From: Eubacteriales bacterium
GTDB taxonomy: Bacteria > Bacillota > Clostridia > Oscillospirales > CAG-272
Assembly: GCA_045633385.1 (NCBI GenBank)
Contig: JAZQYE010000225.1
Location: forward strand, 1-37,144
Length of the DNA: 37,144 bases
Direction of reading: 5' to 3'
The first letter of the stretch is position 1. Every line of letters begins with the position of its first letter. The position numbers and the translations under genes are program-made. Positions 8,973-28,525 of this stretch are shown here, piece after piece. The notes under the pieces were generated by a model. That model searched no databases. It was not told the origin of the DNA and was given only the letters and a program-made list of their open reading frames with translations.

Positions 8973-8991
8973 AGCTTGATTTCTCCTCTTC

Positions 8992-9372: not shown

Positions 9373-9392
9373 GGGGAAGTATTTGGTTTAGC

Positions 9393-10856: not shown

Positions 10857-10881
10857 GTTTCAGCCCGTCGGCATTTTTTCT

Positions 10882-10910
10882 ATTATACCATATCTGTAAA
10901 ATTTTGTCAA
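10882..10910 (-). promoter_or_regulatory. Consensus sigma-A promoter of the low-GC LRR gene
   Basis: On the minus strand: TTGACA (10905-10910), 17-nt spacer, TATAAT (10882-10887), with TGG immediately upstream of the -10. Confidence 0.7.
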
Positions 10911-10917
10911 TACATTA

Positions 10918-10953
10918 ATATAATAAAGCGCCCACCGAAAGGGTGGGCGCTTT
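10918..10953 (-). terminator. Intrinsic terminator of the two-component operon
   Basis: On the minus strand, AAAGCGCCCACC-CTTTC-GGTGGGCGCTTT hairpin (10925-10953) followed by ATTATATT, 40 nt after the stop at 10993. Confidence 0.8.
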
Positions 10954-10992
10954 AGCGTTTATAAAAGCTCCGCGTTTTGATATTGCACTTTG

Positions 10993-11769
10993 TTACTTTT
11001 TAAATTGCAGCATGGCGCAGGTTTCTTCTGCCCAGCTGTATTGCGTCATGTATTCGCCGTGAAAATCGGGCTTGCCCGATTCGAGATAGCTGACGTAGTC
11101 GCACTTGATCAAGCCCGTATCAATGCGGTAGCACGGTGTTTCATGGCACAAAACGCTCTCGGCTCCTACCTTTTTTAAGGTGTTTTTCAAATCCATTACA
11201 AGCTGACGTAAATACGCCGCGTTTTTGTTATCGTCCGTGTTGTACGGGAACAAGACGGCACAGATCTGCTTTGCGGTCATGCCTGCACCGTTTCGGTCAA
11301 CCAAAAAAGCAAACAGCTCCTTGGTCTTTAAACGCTTGAATGCGAGCTGCTTGTTTTTGACGTACACCTCAAAATTGCCAAAGCACTTTACCGTAAGCAT
11401 TTTTTCTTTTTTGATAACGCCCTTGATGTTGTTGATCTCCTCTTGCACGTCCTCGGCGGAGATGGGCTTCATCAAATAGCCCGAAGCGTGAAGCTTAAAG
11501 GCGGGAATGGCGTACTCCTCGTATCCCGTGCAGAATACGATCTTGCAATCGGGGCGCATATCAATGATCTTTTTTGCAAGTGCAAGTCCGCCCATGCCGC
11601 GCATATGGATATCCAAAAAGGCAACGTCAAGCGAATGCTTTTGCACAAATTCGAGCGCTTCCTCACAGTTGGAAAATTTTGCGATCTCCGTAATATCGGG
11701 GGAAGCCTGAATTGCCGCTACCAGGGCACCGAGCATCAACGCTTCGTCATCAACTGCTATTGCAATCAT
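10993..11769 (-). CDS. Two-component response regulator: REC domain plus SARP/BTAD-like winged-helix output
   Basis: REC motifs VDDE, phospho-acceptor FLDIHM, CTGY and YLMKP. The C-terminal FGNFEVYVKNKQLAFKRLKTKELFAFLV resembles the wHTH of SARP-type activators, not LytTR, OmpR or NarL outputs. Confidence 0.85.
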   Translation of the reverse strand: MIAIAVDDEALMLGALVAAIQASPDITEIAKFSNCEEALEFVQKHSLDVAFLDIHMRGMGGLALAKKIIDMRPDCKIVFCTGYEEYAIPAFKLHASGYLMKPISAEDVQEEINNIKGVIKKEKMLTVKCFGNFEVYVKNKQLAFKRLKTKELFAFLVDRNGAGMTAKQICAVLFPYNTDDNKNAAYLRQLVMDLKNTLKKVGAESVLCHETPCYRIDTGLIKCDYVSYLESGKPDFHGEYMTQYSWAEETCAMLQFKK

Positions 11770-13625: not shown

Positions 13626-13673
13626 TTCCGTTTCCTCCAAAGGGCGATAGATTATTTTGTATCAGCACTTATT

Positions 13674-14005: not shown

Positions 14006-15580
14006 ATGAAATCCATAAAAAGCAAAATTCTTTTTATTGTTATTTTTGCTTTGGTTACGGTATCGGCTTCAGTTGGTTTTGTCAGTTATTATTTAACGCA
14101 TGAGATCATGCACAATAACGCAGATGAAATGTTAGATTTAGTCAGCCATGAAAAGGCAGCTGACGTTAACTCCATTCTGCAAAGTATGGAGGATACGGTG
14201 CATTTTGTCAATATTTATGCAACGGCACTGTTGTCGGACGTGGAACAACTTCAGGATATAGACTTTTTAACGCGTTATACGCAAGACCTCGAAAGCGTAT
14301 TTACAGAGGCAGCGAAAGAGACCGAGGGTGTCGTTGGTTATTATTTTCGACTTGCCCCCGAGCTGAGCACGCCTCGCTCCGGCTTCTTCTATGACAAGAG
14401 CGCGATTGGAGGTGCCTTTAAGGTTCAGCAGGTCACCGACCTTTCGCAGTACGCCCCCGACGACCGCGAGCACGTGGGCTGGGATTATGAGCCCCTGCAG
14501 GCAGGCAAGGCGATTTGGATGGAACCGTACGATAACCTCAATAACGGCATTCGTATGATCTCCTACGTCATTCCCGTGTACTGTGACGGCACGTTTATCG
14601 GCGTTTTGGGAATGGATCTTGCGTTCGATTTTCTGGCAGCCACTATCGACGATATTTCGGTTTACAAAAGCGGCTTTGCTTATTTGAGTGATGACGAGGG
14701 AGAACTTGTTTACAGCTCACGGGAGATTGGCGACGATGTGGAGAACGGTCGTTCTACTTATACCGAGGCTTCTGCTATGCTGGATAACGGAATGAGGCTG
14801 ACCGTTCGTGTAGGATATCAGGACATCCAGGGAGAGAGTCGCATTCTGTTGCAGAGTATTATTATTATCGACAGCATTCTTGCCGTCGTTTTCATTCTCG
14901 CCACGATCTATTGTGCCGACCATATCATCAAGCCGCTCAAAAAGCTGACCAAAATGGCAAAGGCGTTGGTGGATGGCGAAAAGATCACCGAATTGGCAAG
15001 CGACGCCAAGGACGAGGTGGGAATCCTTTCCCGCATCTTTATGGAGACTTCCGAAAAGCTGCAGGAAAACATGAGCTACATTACGGCGTTGGCATACCGC
15101 GATACCTTAACGGGGGTTAAGAATACCACCGCTTATAACGAAGCGATTGCCGACGTAGAAAAGCAGATGAATTGCGGTCGCCCGCAGTTTGGTGTGCTTG
15201 TGGCAGACGTAAACGATTTGAAGCTGGTCAACGATACCTACGGTCACGATGCGGGAAATCAAATGATCCAGCACGCCTCCCGTTTGCTGGGCGGTACCTT
15301 CCGTTACAGTCCGTTGTTCCGTATCGGCGGTGATGAATTTGCCGTTATTTTGACGGGCTTGGATTTTGAAAACTACCGTCAGCGACTCAAGCAGCTTGAC
15401 GAGATGTGCGAGCAGGACGTGATCCCGATCGACGGAACCGACATTTGTTTGTCGCTGGCAAGAGGCGTTGCAATTTATGATCCCGAAATTGACCGCACCT
15501 TTAACGACGTATTCAATCATGCCGATCAAGCCATGTATATGCATAAGCAGAGCATGAAGCAGTCGCAGAATGATATTTAA
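14006..15580 (+). CDS. Membrane sensor diguanylate cyclase (Cache-like ectodomain, HAMP, GGDEF)
   Basis: RBS GGGGAGGG. TM1 at aa 9-30, a periplasmic region of about 250 aa with Cache-like blocks (WMEPY, MISYVIPVY.DGTFIGVLGMD), TM2, HAMP (IIKPLKKLTKMA), RDTLTGVKN and an intact RIGGDEF (GGDEF at 15326-15340). No RxxD I-site occupies the canonical position. Confidence 0.9.
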   Translation: MKSIKSKILFIVIFALVTVSASVGFVSYYLTHEIMHNNADEMLDLVSHEKAADVNSILQSMEDTVHFVNIYATALLSDVEQLQDIDFLTRYTQDLESVFTEAAKETEGVVGYYFRLAPELSTPRSGFFYDKSAIGGAFKVQQVTDLSQYAPDDREHVGWDYEPLQAGKAIWMEPYDNLNNGIRMISYVIPVYCDGTFIGVLGMDLAFDFLAATIDDISVYKSGFAYLSDDEGELVYSSREIGDDVENGRSTYTEASAMLDNGMRLTVRVGYQDIQGESRILLQSIIIIDSILAVVFILATIYCADHIIKPLKKLTKMAKALVDGEKITELASDAKDEVGILSRIFMETSEKLQENMSYITALAYRDTLTGVKNTTAYNEAIADVEKQMNCGRPQFGVLVADVNDLKLVNDTYGHDAGNQMIQHASRLLGGTFRYSPLFRIGGDEFAVILTGLDFENYRQRLKQLDEMCEQDVIPIDGTDICLSLARGVAIYDPEIDRTFNDVFNHADQAMYMHKQSMKQSQNDI

Positions 15581-15627: not shown

Positions 15628-15656
15628 TTGACTTTTTCCATGGAATGTATTACAAT
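15628..15656 (+). promoter_or_regulatory. Sigma-A promoter driving the riboswitch-controlled operon
   Basis: TTGACT (15628-15633), 17-nt spacer, TACAAT (15651-15656). Confidence 0.65.
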
Positions 15657-15667
15657 ATAGGAAATTG

Positions 15668-15755
15668 ATTATTTTGGCAAATCTGTCGAAAGGCAGAGAC
15701 GCAAAGCTTGGTGGCTAAGCAAAGGATATTTGTATGCTCGACCGGTTGCAAACTG
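15668..15755 (+). promoter_or_regulatory. Cyclic-di-GMP-I (GEMM-I, Rfam RF01051-type) riboswitch aptamer
   Basis: GGCAAATCTGTCGAAAGGCAGAGACGCAAAGC (15676-15707) matches the invariant GEMM-I core: GGCAAA, a hairpin capped by a GAAA tetraloop, then GACGCAAAGC. The second hairpin carries a tetraloop-receptor-like GCTAAG...TATGC. Confidence 0.85.
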
Positions 15756-15784
15756 TTTTTGTTTTGCAACCGGTCTTTTATTTT
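15740..15784 (+). terminator. Intrinsic terminator forming the riboswitch expression platform
   Basis: 13-bp perfect stem GACCGGTTGCAAA (15740-15752) / TTTGCAACCGGTC (15763-15775), 10-nt loop, then TTTTATTTT. The 5' arm overlaps the 3' strand of the aptamer. Confidence 0.85.
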
Positions 15785-15802: not shown

Positions 15803-16501
15803 TTGAACCGAGTGTATCGGGAAGAGAAAAAGTTTTTGATCAACGTTGAAGATTTCCGCAGGCACGCACATCACCTGGAGCAGGTCTTAACACAGGACGA
15901 ACACAACGGCGCATTCGGTTACCGCGTTCGGTCGCTGTATTTTGATACGATATACGATAACGATTATTTTGAAAAGCTGGACGGCGTGGAGCTGCGGCGA
16001 AAGATCCGTCTTCGTATTTACGATCCGAGCAACGACTTTGCACTGTTGGAAATGAAGCAAAAGCAGGGGCAATATCAGCTCAAGCGCTCGCTCCGAGTCA
16101 CACGCGCGGATGCCGAGGAGCTGATCATGGGCAATTACACGCCGCTTTTAAAATACCGCGAGGATTTTGCCGCCGAGTGCTACGCGTTGATGCAGTCGCA
16201 GATCTATCGCCCCAAAACGGTGGTGGAATACAACCGCAAGGCGTTTGTGGCAAAGGAGAACAAGATCCGCATCACCTTTGACAATCAGATCGTATCTACC
16301 GAGAGCGATTGGAATATTTTTGCCAAGGATCTGAACATGAACGCCGTGCTGGATCCCTTCCACGTGGTGTTGGAGGTCAAATTCAACGGCTTTTTGCTGG
16401 ATTATATCAAGGATCTTTTGGCAAGCACGCAAAAAAGCGAGCTTTCTGTCAGTAAGTATATGCTTGTACGCCAAGCATCATATAAATACAACGTATTATA
16501 A
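15803..16501 (+). CDS. VTC-domain protein (PF09359-like, polyphosphate-polymerase / CYTH-like tunnel fold)
   Basis: 232 aa with a TTG start (alternative GTG at 15812). YREEKKFLI, YRVRSLYFDT, ELRRKIRLRIYD and LEMKQKQG match the conserved basic-tunnel strands of VTC domains. No TM segment or signal peptide. Confidence 0.8.
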   Translation: MNRVYREEKKFLINVEDFRRHAHHLEQVLTQDEHNGAFGYRVRSLYFDTIYDNDYFEKLDGVELRRKIRLRIYDPSNDFALLEMKQKQGQYQLKRSLRVTRADAEELIMGNYTPLLKYREDFAAECYALMQSQIYRPKTVVEYNRKAFVAKENKIRITFDNQIVSTESDWNIFAKDLNMNAVLDPFHVVLEVKFNGFLLDYIKDLLASTQKSELSVSKYMLVRQASYKYNVL

Positions 16502-16519
16502 CAAGGAGTTTACAGTAGC

Positions 16520-17197
16520 ATGAATGACAAGATTTTAGAGCTGTTTGGGGGACAAAATAATTTGACCTGGCAGGTTATTTTGATGAATATCCTGTTTTCT
16601 GCCTTTTTGGGCGTAATCATTTACCTCTCTTATTACCTGACGCATCGCGGAACCATTTACAGCAAAAAGTTTAACGTTTCGCTGGTGGTGCTCACCGTTC
16701 TCACGGGTACGGTCATGACGGTCATCGGCAACAACCTGGCGCTCTCGCTCGGTATGGTCGGTGCGCTCTCTATCGTTCGTTTCCGTACGGCGATCAAGGA
16801 TGCGCGCGATACGATGTATATCTTTTGGGCGATCATCGTTGGTATCTGCTGCGGTGTCAGCGACTTTTTGGTATCCTCCATCGGCAGTGCCGTTGTTTTT
16901 CTCATTCTGTTTATCTTCCATTCGATCAAAAACGACAAGAGAATGCTGTTGATCATTCGTGCAAAGCGCGATCTCGGCGAGCCGATCCAAGCCGCAGTAT
17001 TCAATTTGTTTGACCGCAAGGCTGTTTTGCGCGTGCGCAACACCACACAGGATCGCGTGGAGATGATCTACGAGATCTCCTCCGAGCTGTTGCAACACGC
17101 CGAAAGAGGTAAGCACAGCGTATGCGATAAGATCTATGAGCTTGGCGAGATCGAATACGTCAACATCGTCATGCAAAACGACGAGATCTCCGGTTGA
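16520..17197 (+). CDS. DUF4956-family integral membrane protein
   Basis: 225 aa with 4-5 hydrophobic segments. GALSIVRFRTAIKDARDTMYIFWAIIVGICCG is the hallmark DUF4956 block. The soluble C-terminal tail is about 90 aa. Confidence 0.8.
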   Translation: MNDKILELFGGQNNLTWQVILMNILFSAFLGVIIYLSYYLTHRGTIYSKKFNVSLVVLTVLTGTVMTVIGNNLALSLGMVGALSIVRFRTAIKDARDTMYIFWAIIVGICCGVSDFLVSSIGSAVVFLILFIFHSIKNDKRMLLIIRAKRDLGEPIQAAVFNLFDRKAVLRVRNTTQDRVEMIYEISSELLQHAERGKHSVCDKIYELGEIEYVNIVMQNDEISG

Positions 17198-17201
17198 TTG
17201 A

Positions 17202-18689
17202 ATGAAATACCGTATTTTAGGAATTGTGATCGCGCTCTCCCTGTGTCTTTCCGTGTTTGGTGCATTTGCGTATGCACAGTATCAGCCAACGGGGAACGGG
17301 ACGCGATACCATCAGCATTTGGAGGCAGAGCAAAAGCCTGCCTGCGAGCATACCGACGGCAGCTTTTGTACGCACTTGCCCTTGATCGAGATCAATACCG
17401 AGGGTGGGGAAGAGGTGCCCGGTAAATTCTATATTGACGAAAACCAAAAGGAGCAACCGACCCTTTCCGCAAGCGGCGAAACCTACGTGATGGCAAGCGT
17501 CAATATTTTTGATAACGCCACGCAAAACAATCACCTGACCGATGCGGCAAGCGACACGGGAAGCGTGCGCATCAAGGTGCGCGGAAACTCCTCGCGCTAC
17601 CACGATAAGCTCGGATACACTCTGACCTTTGTGGATGAGGCAGGCGAAAACGAATCCCACGCCGTTATGGGCATGGACGCACACCACGAGTGGGCAATGC
17701 ACGGCCCTTTTCTGGATAAAACGCTCATTCGCAACTATATGTGGTACAACATTTCGGGCGAGCTGATGGACTATGCGCCCAACGTCCGCTTTTGCGAGGC
17801 GTTTCTCAACGGCGAATACATTGGCGTGTACGTGATGGTGGAGACCATTACGGCAGGGCAGGTGGCGGACTCGCGCCTGGATCTGTCGGTTCAAAAAAAG
17901 GATCAGACCTTTACGGGCTACTGCATTCGTATGGACCGCGGAAGCTCCGAGCTGAAGAATCTGGACACCTTTTTAAACTACACCCTGCGCAATCGGCAGA
18001 CCATTGATATCGTATATCCCGGAACCTCCAATCTCACGCCCGAGATCAAGCGTGCGATCGAGCAGGATTTTTCTCACTTTGAGCGCAACTTGTACTCCTT
18101 TGACTACGGCGACGAGACCTACGGCTACCCGAGCTTTATCGACGTTGATTCCTTTGTGGATTATTTTTTGATCAACGAGTTCACCTCAAACTACGATGCG
18201 GGCTGGCTCTCGACCTACGTTTACAAGGATATTGACGGCAAGCTTGACCTGTGCGTATGGGATTTTAACTCGGCGTGCGATAACTACAAGGACGGCGCAA
18301 TGGATCTGACCGATTTTCAAACGCATTATCAACTATGGTTCGTTATGCTGGTCAAATCTCCCGAATTTACCGAGCGGATCATCGAGCGGTACAAGGAGCT
18401 GCGCCGTACCTATTTCAGCGAGGAGTATCTCAACCGCTACATCGAACAGACCGTTGCGTATCTGGGAGATGCGGTCGAGCGCAATTTTGAAAAGTGGGGC
18501 TACACCTTTGAGGAGGGCAATGGACTGCTCGTTCCCGCAGAGCGCAACGTTCACTCCTACGAGGAGGCGTTGGAGCAGCTGCGCTCCTACATTGAGGTGC
18601 GCGGAGAATGGATGGATGCCAATATCGACAGCCTGCGCCAATACTCGAGCGAATCCAGAAACAAAAAACAAAACGAATCGAGGCGGTGA
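17202..18689 (+). CDS. CotH-family atypical kinase-fold protein (PF08757-like), secreted or membrane-anchored
   Basis: Starts 4 nt after the previous stop. N-terminal signal/anchor MKYRILGIVIALSLCLSVFGAFAYA. IKVRGNSSR, DKTLIRNYMWY, LNGEYIGVYVMVE and VWDFNSACDN match CotH family blocks. Confidence 0.85.
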   Translation: MKYRILGIVIALSLCLSVFGAFAYAQYQPTGNGTRYHQHLEAEQKPACEHTDGSFCTHLPLIEINTEGGEEVPGKFYIDENQKEQPTLSASGETYVMASVNIFDNATQNNHLTDAASDTGSVRIKVRGNSSRYHDKLGYTLTFVDEAGENESHAVMGMDAHHEWAMHGPFLDKTLIRNYMWYNISGELMDYAPNVRFCEAFLNGEYIGVYVMVETITAGQVADSRLDLSVQKKDQTFTGYCIRMDRGSSELKNLDTFLNYTLRNRQTIDIVYPGTSNLTPEIKRAIEQDFSHFERNLYSFDYGDETYGYPSFIDVDSFVDYFLINEFTSNYDAGWLSTYVYKDIDGKLDLCVWDFNSACDNYKDGAMDLTDFQTHYQLWFVMLVKSPEFTERIIERYKELRRTYFSEEYLNRYIEQTVAYLGDAVERNFEKWGYTFEEGNGLLVPAERNVHSYEEALEQLRSYIEVRGEWMDANIDSLRQYSSESRNKKQNESRR

Positions 18690-18697
18690 TCTGAGAC

Positions 18698-20866
18698 ATG
18701 AAAAAATATCTGATACTTGTCGCCGTACTGATCGCACTCGTTTTGCTCGGAGACGCGCTTTATTACCGCGTGGGACTGTATATTCCTTGCAGTACCAATG
18801 AGCCGGTCAGCGTGATCTCCAAGATCGAGGACGGGCAGATCACGCAAAAAAAGCCCGACGGCAGCTACGAGATCATTGAGATCAAGGGCGTGAATATGGG
18901 TTCGGGTGTTCCGGGCTACTGGTCCACCGAGTTCCATATTGACAAGGAGACCTATTTGCGTTGGTTTGGTATGATCCAGGATATGGGGGCAAACGTTATT
19001 CGCGTTTACACCATTTTGTCGGAGGATTTTTACAACGCCTTTTACGAGTACAACAACGGGCGTGAGGAGCCGCTGTATCTGATCCAAGGCGTTTGGGTCA
19101 ACGATTACGTGCTGAACTCGCACCACAACATTTACGACGATGCTTTTTGTGAAAACTTTTACACCCACTGCAAAACGGTGGTGGACGTGATTCACGGAGA
19201 AAAAAAGATCTATAAAAATCAATTGCACAGTGCCGGCTACGGCTCTTACCTCAACGACGTTTCGGATTGGGTGCTGGGCTATATCTGGGGCGTTGAATGG
19301 GAGGACCTGACGGTTGCCTATTCCAACGACTATTACAAGGAGCAATCCGAATACAACTCCTATGCGGGAAAGTATCTGTCTTCCTCCGAGGACGCAAACG
19401 CCTTTGAGGTCATGCTTACCATGGTGGGCGACCGCACGCTCGAGTACGAGATGAAGCGCTACCGTGAGCAACGCGTGTTTGCATTTTCCAACTGGGTGAC
19501 TACCGACCCCTTTGATTATCCCGAAGAGGTCGCACGGCAGTTTTCCAAGTGTAGCAAGGTGGATATCGAAAACATTCAATGCAGTAACGAGGTTTTGTCG
19601 GGTCAGTTTGCATCCTACCACGTTTACCCCTACTATCCCGACTATTTGAATCTGTTCAGCGACGAGGAGTGGGAAACGCTTGAGATCGGAGACCGCTCCC
19701 TGTACGCCACCGAGGACGGCAAGACCAACACCTATCTTGCCTACCTGCAATGCCTGACCAATTACCACACCGTTCCCGTGCTGATTTCTGAGTTTGGCGT
19801 TTCGACGGGTCGCGGCATTGCCCAAATCGACCCCAACACGGGCAGAAACCAGGGTAATATGTCCGAGCAGGAGCAGGGCGAGGCTTTGGTCTCCTGTTAT
19901 CAGGATATTATGAAGAGCGGCTGTATCGGCGGTTGTGCCTTTATCTGGCAGGACGAGTGGTTCAAGCGTACGTGGAATACCATGTACTCGGTCGATCTCG
20001 AACGCACGCCGTATTGGTCGGATTATCAAACAAACGAGCAATACTTCGGTCTGCTTTCCTTTGACCCCGGCGAGGAGAAAAGCGTTTGCTACGTGGACGG
20101 TGATATTTCGGAATGGACCGAGCGTGACGTTGTTGCGCAAAACGCCGACGGCAGCAGTATTTCGATGAAGTACGATGAAAGATTCGTATATCTGATGGTG
20201 AAAAAGAGCGGATTTTCGATCGATAACGACAAGCTCTATATCCCCATTGACACCACGCAAAAGTCGGGAAGCAACTATGCCGCAGGCGAGAACGTTAAAT
20301 TTGATCGCGCCGCCGACTTTTTGCTGGTGCTGGACGGAAAAGAGAACTCGCGCTTGCTGGTGCAGGAGCGTTATGAAGCACTGCGCGCCAACTATTCCAA
20401 AGAGGTGTACGGCTTTAACACCTATTACGAGGGCAACGTTCCCGCCGCAGATTCGCCGCAATTTCGCGAGATCTATCTTGTTTTGCAGCTGGAGTCGGAG
20501 GAGGGAACCGAAAACAGCAAATTCCATACGGGTCTTTTGACCTACGGAAATGCAAATCCCGTTTCGGACGAGTTTAATTCGCTTGCCGATTTTTGCGCAG
20601 GTGACGGCTACGTTGAGATCAAGCTCCCGTGGCAGCTGCTCAACTTTATGGATCCTTCCCGTATGATGATCCATGACGATTACTACGAGCACTACGGTTT
20701 GGAGGCAATTGCAATCGACCGTATTTATCTTGGTCTTGGCGACGGTACGGAATCGCGTATCGAAATGAAAGACACCAAATTGAAGGCGTGGGATAACAAG
20801 GTAACCTCCCACGAGCGCCTCAAGGCGTCTTATTACATCTTACAAGCCTTTTGGAAAGAGGACTAA
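18698..20866 (+). CDS. Membrane-anchored extracytoplasmic (beta/alpha)8 glycoside-hydrolase-like protein (clan GH-A-like motifs)
   Basis: 722 aa. N-terminal TM anchor LILVAVLIALVLLG. IKGVNMG, MGANVIRVYTI, CSNEV...SYHVYPYYP and LISEFGVS follow the order of GH-A strand-end motifs (NE acid/base, H-x-Y, E nucleophile). The family was not identified. Confidence 0.7.
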   Translation: MKKYLILVAVLIALVLLGDALYYRVGLYIPCSTNEPVSVISKIEDGQITQKKPDGSYEIIEIKGVNMGSGVPGYWSTEFHIDKETYLRWFGMIQDMGANVIRVYTILSEDFYNAFYEYNNGREEPLYLIQGVWVNDYVLNSHHNIYDDAFCENFYTHCKTVVDVIHGEKKIYKNQLHSAGYGSYLNDVSDWVLGYIWGVEWEDLTVAYSNDYYKEQSEYNSYAGKYLSSSEDANAFEVMLTMVGDRTLEYEMKRYREQRVFAFSNWVTTDPFDYPEEVARQFSKCSKVDIENIQCSNEVLSGQFASYHVYPYYPDYLNLFSDEEWETLEIGDRSLYATEDGKTNTYLAYLQCLTNYHTVPVLISEFGVSTGRGIAQIDPNTGRNQGNMSEQEQGEALVSCYQDIMKSGCIGGCAFIWQDEWFKRTWNTMYSVDLERTPYWSDYQTNEQYFGLLSFDPGEEKSVCYVDGDISEWTERDVVAQNADGSSISMKYDERFVYLMVKKSGFSIDNDKLYIPIDTTQKSGSNYAAGENVKFDRAADFLLVLDGKENSRLLVQERYEALRANYSKEVYGFNTYYEGNVPAADSPQFREIYLVLQLESEEGTENSKFHTGLLTYGNANPVSDEFNSLADFCAGDGYVEIKLPWQLLNFMDPSRMMIHDDYYEHYGLEAIAIDRIYLGLGDGTESRIEMKDTKLKAWDNKVTSHERLKASYYILQAFWKED

Positions 20867-20891: not shown

Positions 20892-22157
20892 ATGATTGAA
20901 ACACTGCTATGGATCTATATTGCGGTCTGTTTGTCGCTGATTTTTTTTCAATGCCTGTTTATTGCAATCATCGCGCTCCGTTCCTATTTTGACCGTCGCG
21001 TGATAGAGCGCAGGTATCGGGAGATCGTCGGTCAGCTTGAGCGGATCTCCCTCAACCAGCCCGTTGCCGACGAGCATCAAAGCTTTTTGAAAAAAGAGCT
21101 CTTTCTTACCCCTTCGCTCTATTGCTACGAAAAGGCGTTGCGTCGGGTGTTTGACGAGATTGAAAACGGTACGCTTGCTTTGCGCGACCCGAACGAGATC
21201 ACAAACGTGATCATCGATATTCGTCACCGTGCCAAAAAAGGGGACGAGAGATCCAGAGGACACTCTAAGATCCGCATGAAGCTGCGCCCCAAAAAGTCGC
21301 TGATCCAACCGCTTGCCAAGGAGCTTGCGGAGCGCTATTTGGGTGAATATGTTCGCCAAACCGCCCCTGCCATCGTTTCTTTGACCGCATCCTATCGCAA
21401 AAAGGACAATATCGTTCACCTGTTTTACATATTCATGCTCAAAAAGTACGGCTATTTACGCCATTGCTACACGTCTGAGCTGGTTGCAAATTTGCGCGAT
21501 TTGTTAGACGACGGCGATTCGGTTTGCGCCGAGGGAATCCTGTTGGCAGTGTATCAGATCGGAGATCCCCACATTACGCTGGACGTTTTACGGCAGGTCG
21601 ATCAAATAGACCGATTCCTGCACCCCAAAATCGTCAGTGACGGATTGCTTTCGTTTGCGGGCGATGCGCTGTCTTGGCAAAAGCTGATGCTGGAGCACTT
21701 GCACGAGTTTTCGGAAACGATGCAGGTCAATCTGCTCAACTACCTGCGCTTTGCGTCGGGTGACCACTGCGAGCGCGTTTTGCAGATGCTTCAAAACGAA
21801 GAGACTTATGACGAGGTGCGTTTTTCCTGCATTCGTTATTTCGGCAAATATCCCTATGAGCCCGCTTACGATCTGCTTGCCGCGTTTGCCGCAGGCATTC
21901 CCGAACAGCGCATCGAATACGCTATCGTTGCGCTTGCCGTTCTCCGACGCTACCCGCGTCAGCGAACGATCGATATTTTGCGTGCACAAATCGGCAGCTT
22001 CAATTGGTTCGTTCGTTACAACGCGACCGAAAGTCTGGAGACCCTTGGCATCGAATATCAGGATCTGGTCGATATTTTTGACGGTAAGGATCGCTTTGCA
22101 AGAGATATGCTGCAATATCAATTCGACCAAAGATATATTCTTGACGGGGAGGTTTGA
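20892..22157 (+). CDS. Membrane-anchored hypothetical protein with HEAT/PBS-lyase-like repeats (tentative)
   Basis: RBS AAAGGAG. N-terminal TM LLWIYIAVCLSLIFFQCLFIAIIAL. Helical-repeat character, e.g. NWFVRYNATESLETLG resembles the VRxxAAxALG HEAT-like unit. Confidence 0.7.
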   Translation: MIETLLWIYIAVCLSLIFFQCLFIAIIALRSYFDRRVIERRYREIVGQLERISLNQPVADEHQSFLKKELFLTPSLYCYEKALRRVFDEIENGTLALRDPNEITNVIIDIRHRAKKGDERSRGHSKIRMKLRPKKSLIQPLAKELAERYLGEYVRQTAPAIVSLTASYRKKDNIVHLFYIFMLKKYGYLRHCYTSELVANLRDLLDDGDSVCAEGILLAVYQIGDPHITLDVLRQVDQIDRFLHPKIVSDGLLSFAGDALSWQKLMLEHLHEFSETMQVNLLNYLRFASGDHCERVLQMLQNEETYDEVRFSCIRYFGKYPYEPAYDLLAAFAAGIPEQRIEYAIVALAVLRRYPRQRTIDILRAQIGSFNWFVRYNATESLETLGIEYQDLVDIFDGKDRFARDMLQYQFDQRYILDGEV

Positions 22158-22159
22158 GA

Positions 22160-23575
22160 GTGAAATACGATTTTATCAACGCCGTGGCGGAATTTTTAAA
22201 GGGTATTACGGTTGGCTACGGTACGTATCTTGTTCTTTATTCCACCTTTCTGTTCGTTGCGGTCATCGTAGGTGCGCTGGTTCTGTATTACCGTAATAAG
22301 CGCATGCGGTACCAGAACGTAGTGGAGAATGAGTATCAGATCCCCATTACCATCGTCGTTCCCGCTTATAACGAGGAGGTCACGGTCGTAGAGACGGTAA
22401 AGTCTCTTTTGACGCTTGAGTATCGCTCCTACGAGATCATCGTTGTGGACGATGGCTCCAAGGATAATACCTCGGGCGTTTTGCGCGAGGCATTCGATAT
22501 GCACCCCGTGCGCCGACCGATCCGCAAGCAGATACCCTGTAAGGACGTTGACACGATTTACGAGTGCTTTACCGAAAAGGTTCCGCTCGTGCTGGTCAGA
22601 AAGATCAACGGCGGAAAGGCAGACGCCTTGAATATGGGAATCAACGCCTCCAGATTTCCGTACTTTATTTGTATGGACGCCGACTCCGTTTTGCAGGCAG
22701 ATTCCTTAATTCGCATTACCCGTCCCGTAATCGAAAACGACGATATCGTTGCCGTTGGCGGCGTGGTACGTCCCTGTAACGACGTCGAATTGGAGGGCGG
22801 ACGCGTCAAGCACTATCAGCTCCCCAAAAACCTGGTGGCTTGTATGCAGGTCGTGGAGTACGACCGCTCGTTTTTGGCTACCCGTATCCTCTTTGACCAA
22901 TTCAACGGCTCTCTCATTATTTCGGGCGCGTTTGGATTGTTCAAAAAAGAAGCCGTCATTGCCGTGGGTGGCTACGACAGCAAAACGATGGGTGAGGATA
23001 TGGAGCTTGTAGTCGATCTTCACAAATACTGTACGGCAAACAAAAAGCCCTACGCGATCAAGTATGCAACCGATGCGGTTTGCTGGACGCAAGCTCCCGA
23101 ACGCTTAAAGGACCTTTGTAAGCAACGCAAGCGTTGGCATCTCGGACTTTTTCAAACGCTGATGAAGCATCGCTCCATGGCAACCGATTTCAAAAGCGGC
23201 CCCGTCAGCTTTATTTCCTATGCGTATTTCTTTATTTACGAGTTTTTGTCACCCTTTATCGAGTTTTTCGGCTTGATCGTTACGTTCTTATCTCTTGTTG
23301 CCAAGCTGATCAACTTTAAATTCTTTTTGATGTTTACCGCAATTTACGCATTGTTTGGCGCGGCACTGACGCTGACCTCGTTTTTTGCGCGAACACAGAC
23401 CTCCGAGATCAAGCTGACCGTGCGCGACGTTGCAAAAGCGGCTTTGATGTGTTTGCTGGAGATCGTTTTTATGCACAACGTTATGACGTACGTGCGCGCC
23501 ACCGCCTTTATCGGCTACCGTAAAAAGAAGCTGCAATGGGGACGGATCGAGCGAAAGAAAATCAACTTAAAGTAA
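22160..23575 (+). CDS. Processive family-2 glycosyltransferase (IcaA/PgaC/BcsA-like polysaccharide synthase)
   Basis: ORF track 22154..23575 (TTG). GTG 22160 is preferred (GGGGAGG 7 nt upstream). VVDDGSKDNT, CMDADS, GEDMEL and QRKRW (23123-23137) form the D,D,D,QxxRW signature. N-terminal TM plus about four C-terminal TM segments; no PilZ domain. Confidence 0.88.
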   Translation: MKYDFINAVAEFLKGITVGYGTYLVLYSTFLFVAVIVGALVLYYRNKRMRYQNVVENEYQIPITIVVPAYNEEVTVVETVKSLLTLEYRSYEIIVVDDGSKDNTSGVLREAFDMHPVRRPIRKQIPCKDVDTIYECFTEKVPLVLVRKINGGKADALNMGINASRFPYFICMDADSVLQADSLIRITRPVIENDDIVAVGGVVRPCNDVELEGGRVKHYQLPKNLVACMQVVEYDRSFLATRILFDQFNGSLIISGAFGLFKKEAVIAVGGYDSKTMGEDMELVVDLHKYCTANKKPYAIKYATDAVCWTQAPERLKDLCKQRKRWHLGLFQTLMKHRSMATDFKSGPVSFISYAYFFIYEFLSPFIEFFGLIVTFLSLVAKLINFKFFLMFTAIYALFGAALTLTSFFARTQTSEIKLTVRDVAKAALMCLLEIVFMHNVMTYVRATAFIGYRKKKLQWGRIERKKINLK

Positions 23576-23587
23576 GGAGGAGAGACC

Positions 23588-26500
23588 ATGCAAAACAAAC
23601 GGCTTTTATGGCTTATGCCGATGATGATCGTCCTGCTGATCTCCATGCTTACGGTTACGGCGGGTGCCGCGGTTTCCTTTTCCGAGGAGAACCGAGGCGA
23701 CAGTCAAAGCGTGTTTATTGCGGGCAACCCCGACCTGTATCCCATCGAATACTTCAACCCCAATACCAAACGCTACGAGGGCGTAATGCCGATTTTGTTC
23801 GAGCGTATTTCCGAGGAGTGCGGACTTGATTTTACCTACATCTACGCATCTGCCGAAAACAAGCAGCAGTATCTGGCGCAAAACGGGCAGGTAGATATCG
23901 TATCCGCGTACGTCAACGATCGCATCGATACGCAGTACGTTCCGCAGGAGAGTGCGTTGCTTCACTTTACCTATAACGGGCGCACCCAAACGGCAGTCAT
24001 TGGCTTTACGTCGGTTTGTGACCAAACGGTAAAAGAGAAGATCAGTACGTATCTGGAGGCGTTGAGCGAGGAGGAGCTGACGGCAATTACCGTTTCCTAC
24101 GTTATGACGCACCAAAGAGAGAGCGCCAAAAACGCATGGATCTTGCCAACCGTTATCGCGGTGATATTGGTCGCGCTTGTCGTTTTGGGCTTGCTGTTCT
24201 ACCGCAATCAAAAGAGGACGGTGGAGCAAAAAAAAATCAACCCCAAAAGCGGACTGTACAACAAGAGCTATCTGGACGTTATTTTGTATTCCTTGATCCA
24301 CGATTTCGTCCGCAAGCGCTATTATGCGGTTTACGTCTCCGCAAATTATGAAAACCTGCTCAAATACTACACCAAGCCCCAATTGGTCGCGCTGTCGGAT
24401 TATATATCGCGCACCTTGCAGGCTGAATTGCAGGATCGCGAGTTTGGCATTCACGTAGGTGAAGACGTTACCTTTTTGCTGTTGATACAAGCCCCCAATC
24501 AGGGGCAGGCAGAGCAAAGGGTTGACGCGCTGATTCAAAGGCTGAACCTTGAAAACGAGATCTTGAGCGACGATTATCGCGTAACGATCTCGGCAGGCTG
24601 TTACGGACTTTCGCAGGCACGCGAGAGCGGCGAACGCATTCTCGACGTAACGAGCGAGGCATATCTTTACGCCGAGGAAAACGCGCTTCGGTACTTCTTT
24701 ATCGACCCTGTATTCCTGAAGCGGGTGGATCGTAAGGCGCTTTTGCAAAAGGAGACCGTTCAAGCGATCAAAAAGGATCAGATCCTGTTCTATCTGCAAT
24801 ATATTGTGGATATTCAAAGAAACGTCATCATCGGTGCAGAGTCGCTCTCCCGTTGGGAGCACCCGCGTGAGGGACTGCTGTTCCCGGGGGCTTACATACA
24901 GCTGATGCAGCACGCAAACAACATTCATTTGTTGGATTTTTACATGCTTGAAAAAAGCTGTCAACAGCTTGCACGCTGGAACACGGACGAAGCGAACGGC
25001 TTGAAGATCTCCTGCAACTTTGACCGACAAACCGTTGCACGGGAAGATTTTTACGACCGTGTCATGGAGATCACCGAAAAATACGGCGTCGATCGCAGTC
25101 GCCTCGTTTTGGAGATCACCGAGGATACCTTTGTTTACAACAAAGAAAACGTGATGCAAAACACGGGCAGACTGCGTAAGGAAGGCTTTAACATAGCCCT
25201 TGACGATTTTGGCAGGGGAAGCTCTTATTTCCAGAATCTGATCGAGTATCACGTCTCCCTTCTCAAGCTGGATCGCATCTTCGTTGCCATGATGAAGACC
25301 GCGCCCGGCGAAACGCTCATCCGCGGAATCGTAACGGCGGCGCACGATCTTGGACTCCACGTACTGCAAGAGGGCGTAGAGACCTACGCAGAGCTGCAAA
25401 CGTGCAAGGCGTTTGGCATTGATATGGTGCAGGGCTTTGTGTTCTCCCGCGTCATTCCCGGCATCGAGGGCGATCGCGTCAGACGCCGTTTGGCTGCTCG
25501 TCTGTTGGAGGAGGGCGCACCCCAAAACAGCTTGCAGACCTATGCCGACGTCAACCCCGACGCCGAGGAGGATAACGTTTACGAGGACGATGACGAGGAG
25601 GGAAGCGCTTACGGTACGCGCTACCGTTGGAGCTTTTTGGCTCGTTTGCACCGCGCTCCCGAGGAGATCGCCGGTTACTATTCGGAGCTGAAGAACGCAT
25701 TTTTGAAATACAAAAAGGTTCGTTCCCGTATCAGCTGGAGCTACGATACCGTCAGCTATCGCCACGCACCTGCGGCAAAATTCGTCATGCGTCAAAAATC
25801 CTTGTTGCTCTATCTTGCTCTGCCGCCCGCAGAATTTGAGGAAAGCAAGTATTTCTTTGTAGATGCATCCGAAAAGAAGAAATACGAGCAGGTTCCGCTT
25901 CGCTTAAAGATTCGCGGCAGCCGCGGCTTTAAGCACGCCTTGGAGCTGATCGAGGAGCTTGCCAAGCGGCTGGAATGGAAGGAACAGACCGATTTTACCG
26001 CACAGGATCACACCTTGCCGTTCAAAACGGTAGAGGAGCTGATCGAGGTAAAGCTGATCAAAATAAACGGCAAGGCACTTGCCGTAGAGGAGCTTCCCGC
26101 ACCGCAAAAGGTGCAAAGCAACATTTCTTATCAAGCACCGAATTTTTCAATTGTAGAGCCTGTTAAAGAGGAAACATCAATGGAGGAAAATACCATGGAA
26201 AACAATTCGACCATTACGCAAAATATTGCGGACTTTATTTACGGTACCTATTACCGTTGGAGCTTTACCGCACGCCTGCACCAAGCGCCCGAAAACGTTG
26301 CCGAGTATTACAACGATATCAAAAATGCCTTTTTGCGCTACAAAAAGGTCAAGTCGCGCATCAGCTGGAGCTGTGATACCATTACGTTTGGCAAGGAGCA
26401 GCTTGCAAAATTCGTGCTGACGCAAAAAACGCTGTACGTATATCTGGCACTCTCTCCCAAGGACTTGGAGGGAACCAAGTACTTCTTTACCGACGAGTCG

Positions 26501-27214
26501 GATATCAAAAAGTACGAAAAGGTTCCGGTTCGCGTGCGCGTTCGCAGTGAGCGCGGTGTGAAGTACACCATCGAGCTGATCGAAAAGATCGCCGCTCTCA
26601 AGGATCTGCAGCTTGCAAAGAACTTTGAGGTCACCGATTTCACGCTCCCGCACGAAAACGTTGAAACGCTGTTGGATCGTCAATTGATCAAAAAGATCGA
26701 TTTGATCGAATCCGTCGTGGTCTCCGAGGAGGAGAGCGAGGAGGAGAGCGTAGCGGCTGCTGCCGTTTTGGAGGAGGCACCCGTTGAGGAAGCACCTGCC
26801 GAGGAGCCGGTCGTTGAGGAAGCACCCGTCGAGGAAGCACCCGTCGAGGAGCCGGTCGTTGAGGAGGCACCCGTCGAGGAAACGCCTGTAGAGGAGCCGG
26901 TCGTTGAGGAGCCCGTTGTGGAAGAAACTCCCGTTCAGGAGCCCCCCGTTGAAGAGCCGGTACAGGAAGAGCCCAAAGCAGAAGAGACCGTTCCTGCGCA
27001 AGCAACGTTCACCGTGGTTGAGGAAACGCCCGCAGAGCAGATTCAAAACGCGGATCTTGCCGAGGCTGAGACCATTCACGTTGCCTTCCTGCAAAAGCTT
27101 TGCCAGCAGTTTGACGCCGACGAATTAAACGCGCACGTCAAGGTGATCTACAAAAAGAAGAGAGAAAAGAAGACGAGTATCTTCGACATCATCATGAAGA
27201 AGAACCGCTCTTGA
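23588..27214 (+). CDS. Multidomain c-di-GMP signalling protein: SBP-like ectodomain, TM, degenerate GGDEF, EAL, two copies of an unassigned module, acidic EExPV repeats
   Basis: RBS AAGGAGGAG. Signal/TM followed by IAGNPDLYPIEYF (type-3 solute-binding-like) and a TM at aa 184-205. The GGDEF position reads VGEDV (24455-24469). The EAL domain has ESLSR (24839-24847), CNF, EITE, DDFGRGSS, KLD, EGVET and QGF all present. Confidence 0.9.
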   Translation: MQNKRLLWLMPMMIVLLISMLTVTAGAAVSFSEENRGDSQSVFIAGNPDLYPIEYFNPNTKRYEGVMPILFERISEECGLDFTYIYASAENKQQYLAQNGQVDIVSAYVNDRIDTQYVPQESALLHFTYNGRTQTAVIGFTSVCDQTVKEKISTYLEALSEEELTAITVSYVMTHQRESAKNAWILPTVIAVILVALVVLGLLFYRNQKRTVEQKKINPKSGLYNKSYLDVILYSLIHDFVRKRYYAVYVSANYENLLKYYTKPQLVALSDYISRTLQAELQDREFGIHVGEDVTFLLLIQAPNQGQAEQRVDALIQRLNLENEILSDDYRVTISAGCYGLSQARESGERILDVTSEAYLYAEENALRYFFIDPVFLKRVDRKALLQKETVQAIKKDQILFYLQYIVDIQRNVIIGAESLSRWEHPREGLLFPGAYIQLMQHANNIHLLDFYMLEKSCQQLARWNTDEANGLKISCNFDRQTVAREDFYDRVMEITEKYGVDRSRLVLEITEDTFVYNKENVMQNTGRLRKEGFNIALDDFGRGSSYFQNLIEYHVSLLKLDRIFVAMMKTAPGETLIRGIVTAAHDLGLHVLQEGVETYAELQTCKAFGIDMVQGFVFSRVIPGIEGDRVRRRLAARLLEEGAPQNSLQTYADVNPDAEEDNVYEDDDEEGSAYGTRYRWSFLARLHRAPEEIAGYYSELKNAFLKYKKVRSRISWSYDTVSYRHAPAAKFVMRQKSLLLYLALPPAEFEESKYFFVDASEKKKYEQVPLRLKIRGSRGFKHALELIEELAKRLEWKEQTDFTAQDHTLPFKTVEELIEVKLIKINGKALAVEELPAPQKVQSNISYQAPNFSIVEPVKEETSMEENTMENNSTITQNIADFIYGTYYRWSFTARLHQAPENVAEYYNDIKNAFLRYKKVKSRISWSCDTITFGKEQLAKFVLTQKTLYVYLALSPKDLEGTKYFFTDESDIKKYEKVPVRVRVRSERGVKYTIELIEKIAALKDLQLAKNFEVTDFTLPHENVETLLDRQLIKKIDLIESVVVSEEESEEESVAAAAVLEEAPVEEAPAEEPVVEEAPVEEAPVEEPVVEEAPVEETPVEEPVVEEPVVEETPVQEPPVEEPVQEEPKAEETVPAQATFTVVEETPAEQIQNADLAEAETIHVAFLQKLCQQFDADELNAHVKVIYKKKREKKTSIFDIIMKKNRS
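25610..26695 (+). repeat. Intragenic tandem duplication with a 630-nt (210-aa) period
   Basis: Copy 1 starts at 25610 (YGTRYRWSFLARLHRAPEE...KNAFLKYKKVRSRISWSYDT). Copy 2 starts at 26240 (YGTYYRWSFTARLHQAPEN...KNAFLRYKKVKSRISWSCDT). About half the residues are identical across roughly 150 aa, and synonymous sites have diverged. Confidence 0.85.
26771..26986 (+). repeat. 15-nt tandem repeat encoding about 14 EE(A/T/P)PV pentapeptides
   Basis: GAGGAAGCACCCGTC / GAGGAGCCGGTCGTT units in frame: EEAPV EEAPA EEPVV EEAPV EEAPV EEPVV EEAPV EETPV EEPVV EEPVV EETPV QEPPV EEPVQ EEPKA. Confidence 0.9.
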
Positions 27215-27262: not shown

Positions 27263-28525
27263 TTGAAAAAGCATTTATTATTGATTGTAATTTGTTTTGC
27301 ATTGTTACTGACATCATTTGGTTGTACGGCCGATTCCACAGAAACCGAGAGCACGCAAACGCCTTCGCAAACTACCAAAGATCCTTCGTTGCAGGAGACG
27401 ACCGATCCCTCCGTTGATCAAGAGCCGACCGCCAAAGCCATTTGGCAGGACGCCAATAACGTCGTTCTTCTTTGGAGCAACGAGGCAAATCACGAGTACA
27501 GCATCTACCGAAGCAACAGCCCCGAGGGGAGCTTTGCGTATCTCGGCAAGAGCTTGACGGGCTCTTACCGCGATGCCACGGCAACCTATCCAAACGCGTA
27601 CTACTACAAAATAAAAGACAAAGATCTTAAAACACAGCAGGTACGGGAGCTTGAGCCGATCGGCGCGGTCGTTGCGCCCGAGGAGGTGGACTCTGTCAGC
27701 GTGATCATGTATCACAATTTTGTCAGCCAAGAGGATATCGAAAACGGCATTGAGTTTGAGGAATATTCCATCTCTCCCGCCGATTTTGAAGCGGATCTGA
27801 TCTGGCTGAAGGAAAACGGCTACGTTACCATCACGTCAAGAGAGCTGTTGTATTATCTGGAGAACAAAGAGCCCATTCCGCAAAAGGCGGTCATTCTGTC
27901 TATCGATGACGGCTCGTGGGGCGTATATACCAACGCTTGGCCGCTCTTGAAAAAGCACGGCATGAAGGCGGATTTCAACGTCATCGGCGCGCAGATCGAT
28001 GCTACGTGGGAGCTGCTTCATTCTGGCGGAACGCGAGAGGGCGAGCCCGCACCTTTTTGCACGTGGGAGGAGCTGATCGAAATGCAGCAAAGCGGAGAGA
28101 TTAACGTATGCTCCCATACCTACGGTATGCACGTGTATAACAAAGAAAAGCGCGTGGGCATGAGCATGATGGAAAACGAGACCCCCGAGGCGTTTGCACA
28201 AGCCGTTCAAAAGGACTACAATCTGGTTTTGAGCTGCATGGAGGGCTGGACGGGCATTATGACCGAAACGGTGGCTTATCCCTACTCCAAGAGGAGCGCG
28301 ACGGGTGACCGTATCGTTTTGGAAAACACGGGGTACAAAATTTTGATGGCGGGAAACGGCGCCAGAGGCACGGCAGGGAACTACTTTGTCAGGGGCTGTG
28401 ATTTTGTCAATCAGCTCACGCTCATGAGCCGCCCGTGCCGAATGGACGGAACCCCCATCAGCGTCTATCTTGAAAACATTCAAGTAAGGGATGCAAAAAA
28501 CGGAGTCAACGTTTCGAATGCGTAG
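27263..28525 (+). CDS. Polysaccharide deacetylase (CE4, IcaB/PgaB-like) lipoprotein with an N-terminal FN3-like module
   Basis: TTG start. MKKHLLLIVICFALLLTSFGC lipoprotein signal. VIMYHNF, SIDDGSWG (TFDDG-type motif) and CSHTYGMH (H-S/T-x-x-H motif). Confidence 0.85.
   Translation: MKKHLLLIVICFALLLTSFGCTADSTETESTQTPSQTTKDPSLQETTDPSVDQEPTAKAIWQDANNVVLLWSNEANHEYSIYRSNSPEGSFAYLGKSLTGSYRDATATYPNAYYYKIKDKDLKTQQVRELEPIGAVVAPEEVDSVSVIMYHNFVSQEDIENGIEFEEYSISPADFEADLIWLKENGYVTITSRELLYYLENKEPIPQKAVILSIDDGSWGVYTNAWPLLKKHGMKADFNVIGAQIDATWELLHSGGTREGEPAPFCTWEELIEMQQSGEINVCSHTYGMHVYNKEKRVGMSMMENETPEAFAQAVQKDYNLVLSCMEGWTGIMTETVAYPYSKRSATGDRIVLENTGYKILMAGNGARGTAGNYFVRGCDFVNQLTLMSRPCRMDGTPISVYLENIQVRDAKNGVNVSNA

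Follow-up and report, generated by a model that had tools for sequence, protein, structure and literature searches.

VTC, DUF4956 and CotH genes lead a riboswitch-preceded exopolysaccharide operon in a Eubacteriales bacterium: a candidate phosphoryl relay across the membrane

Background

Genes for a VTC-domain protein, a DUF4956 membrane protein and a CotH-family kinase stand side by side in bacterial exopolysaccharide loci, and we describe here such a trio in a 37,144-nucleotide stretch of a Eubacteriales bacterium (assembly GCA_045633385.1, contig JAZQYE010000225.1; "the window" below means this whole stretch), where it opens an operon preceded by a cyclic di-GMP (c-di-GMP) riboswitch. The closest described system is the accessory set of Gram-positive pelDEADAFG loci, in which cotH, a gene for a "poly-phosphate polymerase", DUF4956 and DUF4832 are contiguous and for which the authors proposed regulation by phosphorylation (Whitfield 2020, PMC7112168). 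In Streptococcus intermedius each gene of the trio (SIR_1592-1594) has since been deleted, and loss of either the DUF4956 or the CotH homologue cut aggregation in artificial sputum by more than 50%; the mechanism was left open, and the trio was reported as not found outside Pel loci (mBio 2025, PMC12345266).

The trio of the window resembles the Pel accessory set in several respects: the same three families are contiguous in an exopolysaccharide locus of the synthase-dependent type, they have a glycoside-hydrolase-like gene as neighbour, the CotH protein is predicted to be secreted, and the DUF4956 protein corresponds to the MgtC-like transmembrane (TM) part plus ACT domain described in the literature. 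It differs in its synthase, a PgaC-like glycosyltransferase of family 2 (GT2) accompanied by HEAT-repeat, EAL and CE4 partners, with no pel genes among the open reading frames (ORFs) scanned; in its gene order, which is VTC-DUF4956-CotH at the start of the operon; in its c-di-GMP riboswitch; and in its glycoside-hydrolase-like neighbour, which gives no DUF4832 match.

A second published relative is the locus NELoc-2 of Clostridium perfringens, genes CP4_0463-0468 (Lepp 2010, PMC2879425). By the published table only, without sequence alignment, it agrees with the window in order and size, with a VTC protein of 230 amino acids, a membrane protein of 222 amino acids (annotated "tubulin/FtsZ"), a CotH protein of 497 amino acids, a hypothetical protein of 685 amino acids, a HEAT-repeat protein of 377 amino acids and a GT2 "chitin synthase" of 466 amino acids; neither a riboswitch nor a function is reported there. 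NELoc-2 is unlike the window in that the pair of VTC and membrane-protein genes occurs twice, flanking a resolvase gene. The "tubulin/FtsZ" entry is a mis-annotated DUF4956 protein. The gene set was thus already published, in Pel loci and in NELoc-2, which the initial annotation of this DNA had missed along with the riboswitch; what is new here is its occurrence outside Pel loci, beside PgaC-like and BcsA-like synthases, together with the riboswitch control, the residue match to yeast Vtc4 and the predicted topology of DUF4956.

The yeast VTC complex (Vtc4/Vtc3/Vtc1) couples the synthesis of polyphosphate to its translocation. The bacterial protein shares with it the tunnel residues K200, R264, R266, K281, K294, Y359, R361 and R373 (Vtc4 numbering) and an obligate association with a membrane protein, and it has an LEVK motif that is a plausible counterpart of the one containing E426. 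In contrast to the yeast protein, it carries neither an SPX domain nor a fused TM domain, has a separate MgtC-like partner and shows substitutions at E8, K67 and K87; control is by inositol pyrophosphate in yeast and by a c-di-GMP riboswitch here, and the target of the product would be the cell exterior. A 2023 review of polyphosphate evolution treats VTC across eukaryotes only and gives PPK1 and PPK2 for bacteria. In the literature searched, which did not cover all journals, we found no assay of a bacterial VTC or DUF4956 protein and no proposal of polyphosphate export.

There is precedent for the decoration of a synthase-made polymer by an extracytoplasmic transferase that draws, by way of a membrane component, on a cytoplasmic or membrane donor, as in O-acetylation by AlgI/AlgJ/AlgX and in the phosphoethanolamine modification of cellulose by BcsG; the alginate MBOAT and AlgX-like pair relays acetyl groups across the membrane to the polymer. 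These relays show the same three-part logic as that considered here for the trio, without homology and by analogy only.

Results

Conservation of the trio

The initial annotation had described three ORFs at 15803-18689, separated by gaps of 18 and 4 nucleotides, and this description stands; all three are on the + strand. Pfam assigns the first to VTC (E 7e-41; 140.7 bits, cut-off 23; match over positions 2-229 of the 235 in the profile), the second, of 225 amino acids, to DUF4956 (E 7e-13) and the third, of 495 amino acids, to CotH (E 3e-58, 198.2 bits). The TTG start codon of the VTC gene is preceded by AAAGGA.

The DUF4956 family comprises 5616 clusters at E <= 0.001 among 1.84 billion representative proteins. 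Loci were collected by scanning one genome per species with a DUF4956 alignment, for which a 12-sequence subset was used since the 30-sequence alignment was too diverse, and the best 80 loci of at least 600 rows were analysed; genes were called with hidden Markov models (HMMs) built from the window proteins and iterated on the loci. The 80 loci come chiefly from Clostridia, with some Bacilli, one Spirochaetales metagenome-assembled genome (MAG) and some Tenericutes-like MAGs; the nearest to the window are MAGs of gut or rumen Clostridia.

VTC adjoins DUF4956 on the same strand in 79 of the 80 loci, that is, in every one of the 79 that have a VTC gene, and lies upstream of it in 76 of those 79 at a median gap of about 17 nucleotides. 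Of the 70 loci with the pair and a CotH gene, 68 have CotH as a direct neighbour. Other arrangements were also seen, namely CotH-VTC-DUF4956, DUF4956-CotH-VTC and CotH-DUF4956-VTC, and this permutation argues that the linkage is functional and not merely an inherited order. Chance adjacency of the three genes was rejected, as synteny over 80 species-level genomes in several orders, permuted ones included, leaves it a negligible probability. As judged from gene neighbourhoods, these data support a functional unit of the three genes that is conserved and linked to an exopolysaccharide operon.

The polysaccharide context is of more than one kind. About 39 loci repeat the layout of the window, with the trio followed by the 722-amino-acid protein, the HEAT-repeat protein and a PgaC-like GT2, often together with an EAL protein, and in 12 loci the trio lies beside BcsA-like synthases of the GT2+PilZ type. 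The window and 51 further loci contradict the published statement that the trio could not be found outside Pel loci.

Some loci show additional genes. In L042 (11140-13837) and L044 (3252-4685), genes for an MBOAT and an AlgX-like SGNH protein lie between CotH and the BcsA-like GT2+PilZ synthase; they are polysaccharide O-acetylation machinery, a second membrane-spanning system for polymer modification beside the trio. The sole cases in which a gene splits VTC from DUF4956 are L007 (6202-7998) and L008 (4977-6722), where the intervening gene is about 1.7 kb long and matched the CE4 HMM. Two consecutive CotH genes, for proteins of about 470-490 and about 710-780 amino acids, occur in Lachnospiraceae (L067 and L068, also L071 and L072; about 8657-12400), and L067 has more CotH copies nearby.

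The VTC-domain protein

A hydropathy scan found no TM segment in the VTC protein, as had been claimed, and Pfam and hydropathy together gave no further Pfam domain, no SPX domain and no fused TM domain; 78 of 79 homologues likewise lack a TM segment. Searches of PDB sequences with the single VTC and CotH sequences gave only noise, and profiles of syntenic homologues were used instead. The profile made from 29 syntenic VTC proteins finds yeast Vtc4 (3g3q) with E 7e-13. Fifteen residues of the window protein align with Vtc4 residues, namely R6 (R196), K10 (K200), S44 (S239), Y46 (Y241), D48 (D243), R69 (R264), R71 (R266), Y73 (Y268), E83 (E279), K85 (K281), K94 (K294), Y143 (Y359), R145 (R361), R156 (R373) and D160 (D377), and all 15 are invariant in the 29 bacterial sequences. 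A loss of the tunnel Lys and Arg residues, which would have spoken against a Vtc4-like enzyme, was therefore not seen: K10, R69, R71, K85, Y143 and R145 are kept. According to the cryo-EM paper on the yeast complex, the triphosphate ligands of Vtc4 are K200, R264, R266, K281, R361, K458, S457 and Y359 and the Mn ligand is E426, and it is K458 that sets Vtc4, which is active, apart from the inactive Vtc2 and Vtc3.

In the first tunnel strand, R-x-E-x-K, the Arg of Vtc4 stands in place of the first Glu of the CYTH motif ExExK. Three invariant bacterial residues are unlike those of Vtc4: E8 (T198), K67 (A262) and K87 (H283). In the C-terminal third only the strand Y-x-R...R-x-T-x-D could be aligned, and only to Vtc2 and Vtc3. 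An invariant bacterial LEVK (E191, K193) pairs with the LEVK of Vtc4 only in a non-significant stretch of the alignment; a correspondence of E191 and K193 to E426 and K428 is plausible.

The DUF4956 protein

Hydropathy indicates four to five TM-like segments followed by a soluble C-terminal tail of about 85 amino acids. An AlphaFold model from the single sequence was unusable (predicted local distance difference test, pLDDT, 45); with a 30-sequence alignment the pLDDT was 85.6, and the model has five helices (17-134) and a beta-alpha-beta-beta-alpha-beta, ACT-like domain (141-218). Among PDB structures Foldseek ranks the C-terminal domain of M. tuberculosis MgtC first (2lqj; E 3.6e-3, TM-score 0.59 on the target), followed by the MgtC domain from P. 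aeruginosa and by folds of the ACT or NikR type. Pfam MgtC is matched below threshold (18.5 bits against a cut-off of 31.4), and weak Pfam MgtC matches were found in 18 of 30 family members. The DUF4956 protein is thus like MgtC/SapB of Salmonella and M. tuberculosis in its five-helix block and C-terminal ACT-like domain, and unlike them in falling under the Pfam MgtC cut-off, in having its own invariant motif, SLGMVGALSIVRFRT, and in being nearly always paired with VTC.

The most conserved stretch of the family is SLGMVGALSIVRFRTAIKD, in which R87 and R89 are nearly invariant (at least 90% of 30 sequences). Across the family the N-terminus is acidic, the loop at 87-97 averages 3.5 Lys plus Arg and a basic segment follows the fifth helix; this distribution of charge argues for an N-out, C-in topology, with the Arg loop (RFRT) and the ACT-like domain in the cytoplasm. 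The invariant basic loop is therefore predicted to face the compartment in which the soluble VTC enzyme could dock on it.

The CotH-family kinase

The N-terminus of the CotH protein is signal-peptide-like by hydropathy, in agreement with the initial annotation, and reads MKYRILGIVIALSLCLSVFGAFAYA followed, after the putative cleavage point, by Q. Of 76 CotH homologues, 73 have a hydrophobic segment at the N-terminus (against 1 of 79 VTC homologues). Retention of CotH in the cytoplasm, which would count against an extracytoplasmic kinase, is not what is predicted: the export signal is conserved and the catalytic aspartates are present. The CotH profile matches B. cereus CotH (5jd9) with E 1e-16. 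D332 and D354 of the window protein are the counterparts of the catalytic and the metal-binding aspartate of B. subtilis (D228 and D251), whose mutation has been reported to abolish activity, and are kept in 66 and 67 of 72 homologues. The window protein thus shares the Pfam family and both catalytic aspartates with the Bacillus spore-coat Ser/Thr kinase CotH (5jd9, 5jda), and is unlike it in its N-terminal signal, an extension of about 120 amino acids, its polysaccharide operon and the lack of any evidence for sporulation.

The operon and its control

The trio leads an eight-gene operon with junctions of 18, 4, 8, 25, -4, 12 and 48 nucleotides. Its features, together with the regulatory elements and the cyclase gene that precede it, are given in Table 1.

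Table 1. Positions of the trio, its operon and the elements upstream of it in the window
Feature	Position	Strand	Basis and remarks
dCache-HAMP-GGDEF diguanylate cyclase	14006..15580	+	Pfam GGDEF 7e-26, dCache_1 4e-13, HAMP
Sigma-70-like promoter, TTGACT-17 nt-TACAAT	15628..15656	+	consensus scan, 10/12 matches, pattern match only
c-di-GMP-I (GEMM-I) riboswitch aptamer, directly upstream of the VTC gene	15666..15753	+	Rfam RF01051, full-length
Intrinsic terminator hairpin and U-run	15740..15784	+	-22 kcal/mol, z-score -4.8
VTC-domain protein, Vtc4-type triphosphate tunnel, soluble	15803..16501	+	232 aa, TTG start, Pfam VTC
DUF4956 membrane protein	16520..17197	+	225 aa, Pfam DUF4956, AF2 model
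CotH-family kinase, predicted secreted or membrane-anchored	17202..18689	+	495 aa, Pfam CotH, N-terminal signal
722-aa membrane-anchored extracytoplasmic protein (predicted)	18698..20866	+	no Pfam match, N-terminal TM segment
HEAT-repeat protein	20892..22157	+	421 aa, Pfam HEAT_2 3e-8, N-terminal TM segment
Processive membrane GT2 synthase, PgaC/IcaA-like	22154..23575	+	473 aa, Pfam GT2 families
Membrane EAL-domain protein	23588..27214	+	1208 aa, Pfam EAL 1.6e-54, NCBIfam phosphodiesterase families
CE4 polysaccharide deacetylase, PgaB/IcaB-like, last gene of the operon	27263..28525	+	Pfam Polysacc_deac_1 1e-13

With 72.6 bits (E 1.6e-12) the riboswitch aptamer clears the Rfam gathering score of 35, and none of 200 shuffled sequences formed a hairpin as stable as the terminator. 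The 5' arm of this hairpin, ACCGGUU, forms in the Rfam alignment the 3' strand of a helix of the aptamer; ligand binding should therefore block termination, and the element is best read as a probable ON switch. Rfam found the riboswitch at the same position in all nine close loci tested and did not find a c-di-GMP riboswitch in nine more distant loci, which makes it specific to this clade and not general to the module. The GGDEF motif of the cyclase is intact (residue 441), and in 25 related loci a homologous cyclase gene precedes VTC. In the window this gene is a transcription unit of its own just upstream of the operon and a likely local source of c-di-GMP.

The gene for the 722-amino-acid protein follows CotH in 39 loci. 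A profile of the protein gives a weak match to a GH2 catalytic domain (9fz9, E 2.4e-4), and GH72 matches were obtained for 4 of 14 homologues; together they suggest a glycoside-hydrolase-like barrel of clan GH-A outside the membrane. The HEAT-repeat gene is syntenic in 33 loci. The EAL protein has the motifs ESL (in place of EAL), DDFG and EGVE, and may be either an active phosphodiesterase or a receptor for c-di-GMP; its EAL domain is followed by two copies of a domain of about 200 amino acids (YRWSF.ARLH.APE...ISWS.DT...KYFF.D) that give no Pfam match, and it ends in an acidic, PVEE-rich low-complexity tail. The deacetylase has a lipoprotein-like signal, and 3' of its gene are a terminator-like site (28550-28569) and a strong promoter (28765).

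Two known polysaccharide systems were considered for the operon and rejected. The synthase scores 152.6 bits against TIGR03937 (PgaC_IcaA; equivalog cut-off 422) and the deacetylase 110.8 bits against TIGR03938 (PgaB; cut-off 321.9), so a true poly-N-acetylglucosamine (PNAG) system of the pgaABCD or icaADBC type was set aside and the polymer is PNAG-like at most. A Pel locus was rejected since neither a PelF-like GT4 nor a PelG-like protein was found among the 18 window ORFs scanned against Pfam, three of which gave no match, and the synthase is a GT2.

Elsewhere in the window are two large BspA-type surface proteins with leucine-rich repeats, at 335-3349 (+) and 9393-10856 (-) (LRR_5, E 7e-191 and 7e-105). 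The G+C content is lower at 9001-11000 (0.40 against about 0.50 elsewhere). A divergent two-component pair at 10993-13640 (-), upstream of the cyclase gene, encodes a 624-amino-acid histidine kinase (PF06580, His_kinase) and a response regulator. Long ORFs without a Pfam match at E <= 0.001 lie at 4036-6255 (+, 739 amino acids), 30444-31628 (-, 394 amino acids) and 31911-36188 (-, 1425 amino acids).

Discussion

On the best-supported reading of these data, the trio serves c-di-GMP-controlled, synthase-dependent exopolysaccharides as a portable modification module. As to how such a module would work, we propose tentatively, with a probability of about 0.38, that its three parts relay phosphoryl groups across the membrane and that the trio is the leading accessory module of a c-di-GMP-induced exopolysaccharide operon. 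The local sensor diguanylate cyclase would make c-di-GMP, the riboswitch would then prevent termination, and the eight genes would be transcribed. The PgaC-like GT2 synthase would make and extrude the polymer, which the CE4 deacetylase and the glycoside-hydrolase-like 722-amino-acid protein would process outside the cell. At the inner face of the membrane the Vtc4-type enzyme would build polyphosphate, or a short phosphoanhydride chain, from ATP; it would dock on the MgtC-like DUF4956 protein, which would pass or present the product outward, and the secreted CotH protein would phosphorylate the polysaccharide or else a protein of the matrix or of the synthase complex. Polyphosphate synthesis, its translocation by DUF4956 and both the donor and the substrate of CotH are parts of this scheme that we infer.

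Several findings speak for the relay. Conservation of the active site of Vtc4 suggests that ATP and a phosphate chain may be handled by the cytoplasmic part. A membrane-coupled step is indicated by a membrane protein that is strictly paired with the enzyme and whose basic loop is predicted to point towards it, and phosphorylation outside the cell by the predicted export of CotH and its active-looking kinase residues. The operon anatomy agrees with the model, and so do the occurrence of the trio with three kinds of synthase, the doubled pair in NELoc-2 and the MBOAT and AlgX-like genes that accompany the trio in BcsA-like loci. That deletion of the DUF4956 or the CotH homologue alters both Pel level and aggregation in S. 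intermedius (PMC12345266) also speaks for it.

Several observations weigh against the relay. The two deletions just mentioned had effects of opposite sign on Pel, the signal being raised by loss of the DUF4956 homologue and lowered by loss of the CotH homologue, and deletion of the VTC homologue brought no reported change (PMC12345266), which counts against an obligate pathway. No yeast VTC chain is among the 50 best Foldseek matches listed for the DUF4956 model (all with E > 0.001), and a DUF4956 profile search of PDB sequences returned none, though VTC complex entries are present there; taken with the MgtC matches, this places the protein with MgtC and not among homologues of the eukaryotic channel. 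MgtC itself counts as a regulator, not as a transporter, and no transport activity is known for its family. The characterised CotH enzymes use ATP. In the tunnel itself, E8 is invariant where Vtc4 has Thr198 and is nearer to the metal-binding motif of CYTH triphosphatases, and the invariant S217-K218-Y219 could not be aligned by HMMER to S457-K458 of Vtc4, for which S217-K218 would nevertheless be a plausible counterpart. Among the 150 best DUF4956 representatives there is no full-length fusion with VTC. Lastly, the pair occurs without a nearby CotH in three complete loci (L062, L075 and L077); VTC and DUF4956 are thus the core of the module and CotH its usual client.

Near the pair in L062 is a CE4 deacetylase gene. 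In L075 (Sediminibacillus terrae; 8617-10740) the pair is followed by a gene for a 707-amino-acid carbohydrate-binding protein of the Cthe_2159 family, which may be an alternative extracellular partner. One DUF4956 representative of 282 amino acids (P0136) joins the C-terminal part of VTC to most of DUF4956 and is probably a fragment or a frameshift product; another long representative is a HEPN chimera.

The initial annotation had seen in the trio a possible bacterial analogue of the yeast VTC complex that feeds an extracytoplasmic kinase. The trio as a conserved unit, the Vtc4 tunnel residues and the export of CotH have held up, whereas the DUF4956 protein shows no likeness to the VTC channel in sequence or in fold. 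A stricter version, in which a Vtc4-like enzyme docked on an MgtC-like membrane protein forms a two-protein polyphosphate synthase and translocase, evolved independently of the eukaryotic VTC channel, that feeds the phosphorylation by CotH of an exopolysaccharide or of a matrix protein, is in our judgement rather unlikely.

The least unlikely of the alternatives is that the trio is regulatory and exports no phosphoryl donor. The MgtC-like DUF4956 protein would modulate the synthase complex, or the homeostasis of phosphate or ATP, through its ACT-like domain; the VTC protein would be a sensor or hydrolase of triphosphate or polyphosphate that tunes DUF4956, and CotH would phosphorylate external parts of the synthase complex and so set its output. 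The MgtC-like architecture and fold fit this, as do the Pel changes of opposite sign after deletion of DUF4956 and of CotH, the lack of a reported VTC phenotype, the suggestion of phosphorylation-based regulation made for Pel and the resemblance of the invariant E8 to the metal-binding Glu of CYTH hydrolases. Strict conservation of all those triphosphate-binding residues of Vtc4 that could be aligned would, however, be unexpected in a mere sensor, an extracytoplasmic kinase would still require a donor, and a regulation specific to each of three unrelated synthase types (Pel, PgaC-like and BcsA-like) would be hard to keep.

Polyphosphate might instead be the end product, an exported polyanion that ionically cross-links a partly deacetylated, cationic polysaccharide, with CotH acting separately on matrix proteins at the expense of extracellular ATP. 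The gelling of chitosan by tripolyphosphate is a model for such cross-linking. The conserved catalytic residues, the VTC-DUF4956 pair as an invariant core with CotH absent nearby in some loci, and the deacetylases encoded in the window operon and in Pel loci, which would make the polymer cationic, would all agree with this; against it, adjacency of CotH in 68 of 70 loci suggests the same process for all three proteins, the BcsA-like loci carry genes for acetylation and not for deacetylation, the fold and sequence searches with DUF4956 gave no evidence of export, and the VTC mutant of S. intermedius was without a reported phenotype. We hold this to be less likely still than a regulatory trio. 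Slightly less likely again is the proposal that the tunnel performs some other chemistry, be it as a triphosphatase, as a nucleotide cyclase or in the phosphorylation of a lipid or sugar carrier, with DUF4956 as an anchor and no polyphosphate made. The triphosphate-tunnel superfamily is catalytically diverse, E8, K67 and K87 differ from T198, A262 and H283 of Vtc4, and no bacterial member has been assayed in the literature searched; yet the best Pfam and PDB matches are specifically to VTC and Vtc4, and the R-x-E-x-K strand is of the Vtc4 type.

Conclusions

A large bacterial family keeps every catalytic residue of Vtc4 that could be aligned and is nearly always paired with one membrane protein. 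If this pair makes polyphosphate and exports it, it would be a second, independently evolved coupling of polyphosphate synthesis to membrane transit, and it would supply the missing exporter for bacterial surface polyphosphate and explain what fuels the secreted kinase. The window offers a clean model operon that can be read out simply through its riboswitch. Irrespective of any polyphosphate export, the trio accompanies at least three kinds of biofilm polysaccharide synthase as a portable accessory linked to c-di-GMP, and its loci are found in gut commensals, in abscess-forming streptococci and in strains of C. perfringens that cause necrotic enteritis; the module probably affects properties of the matrix that are relevant to colonisation and virulence.

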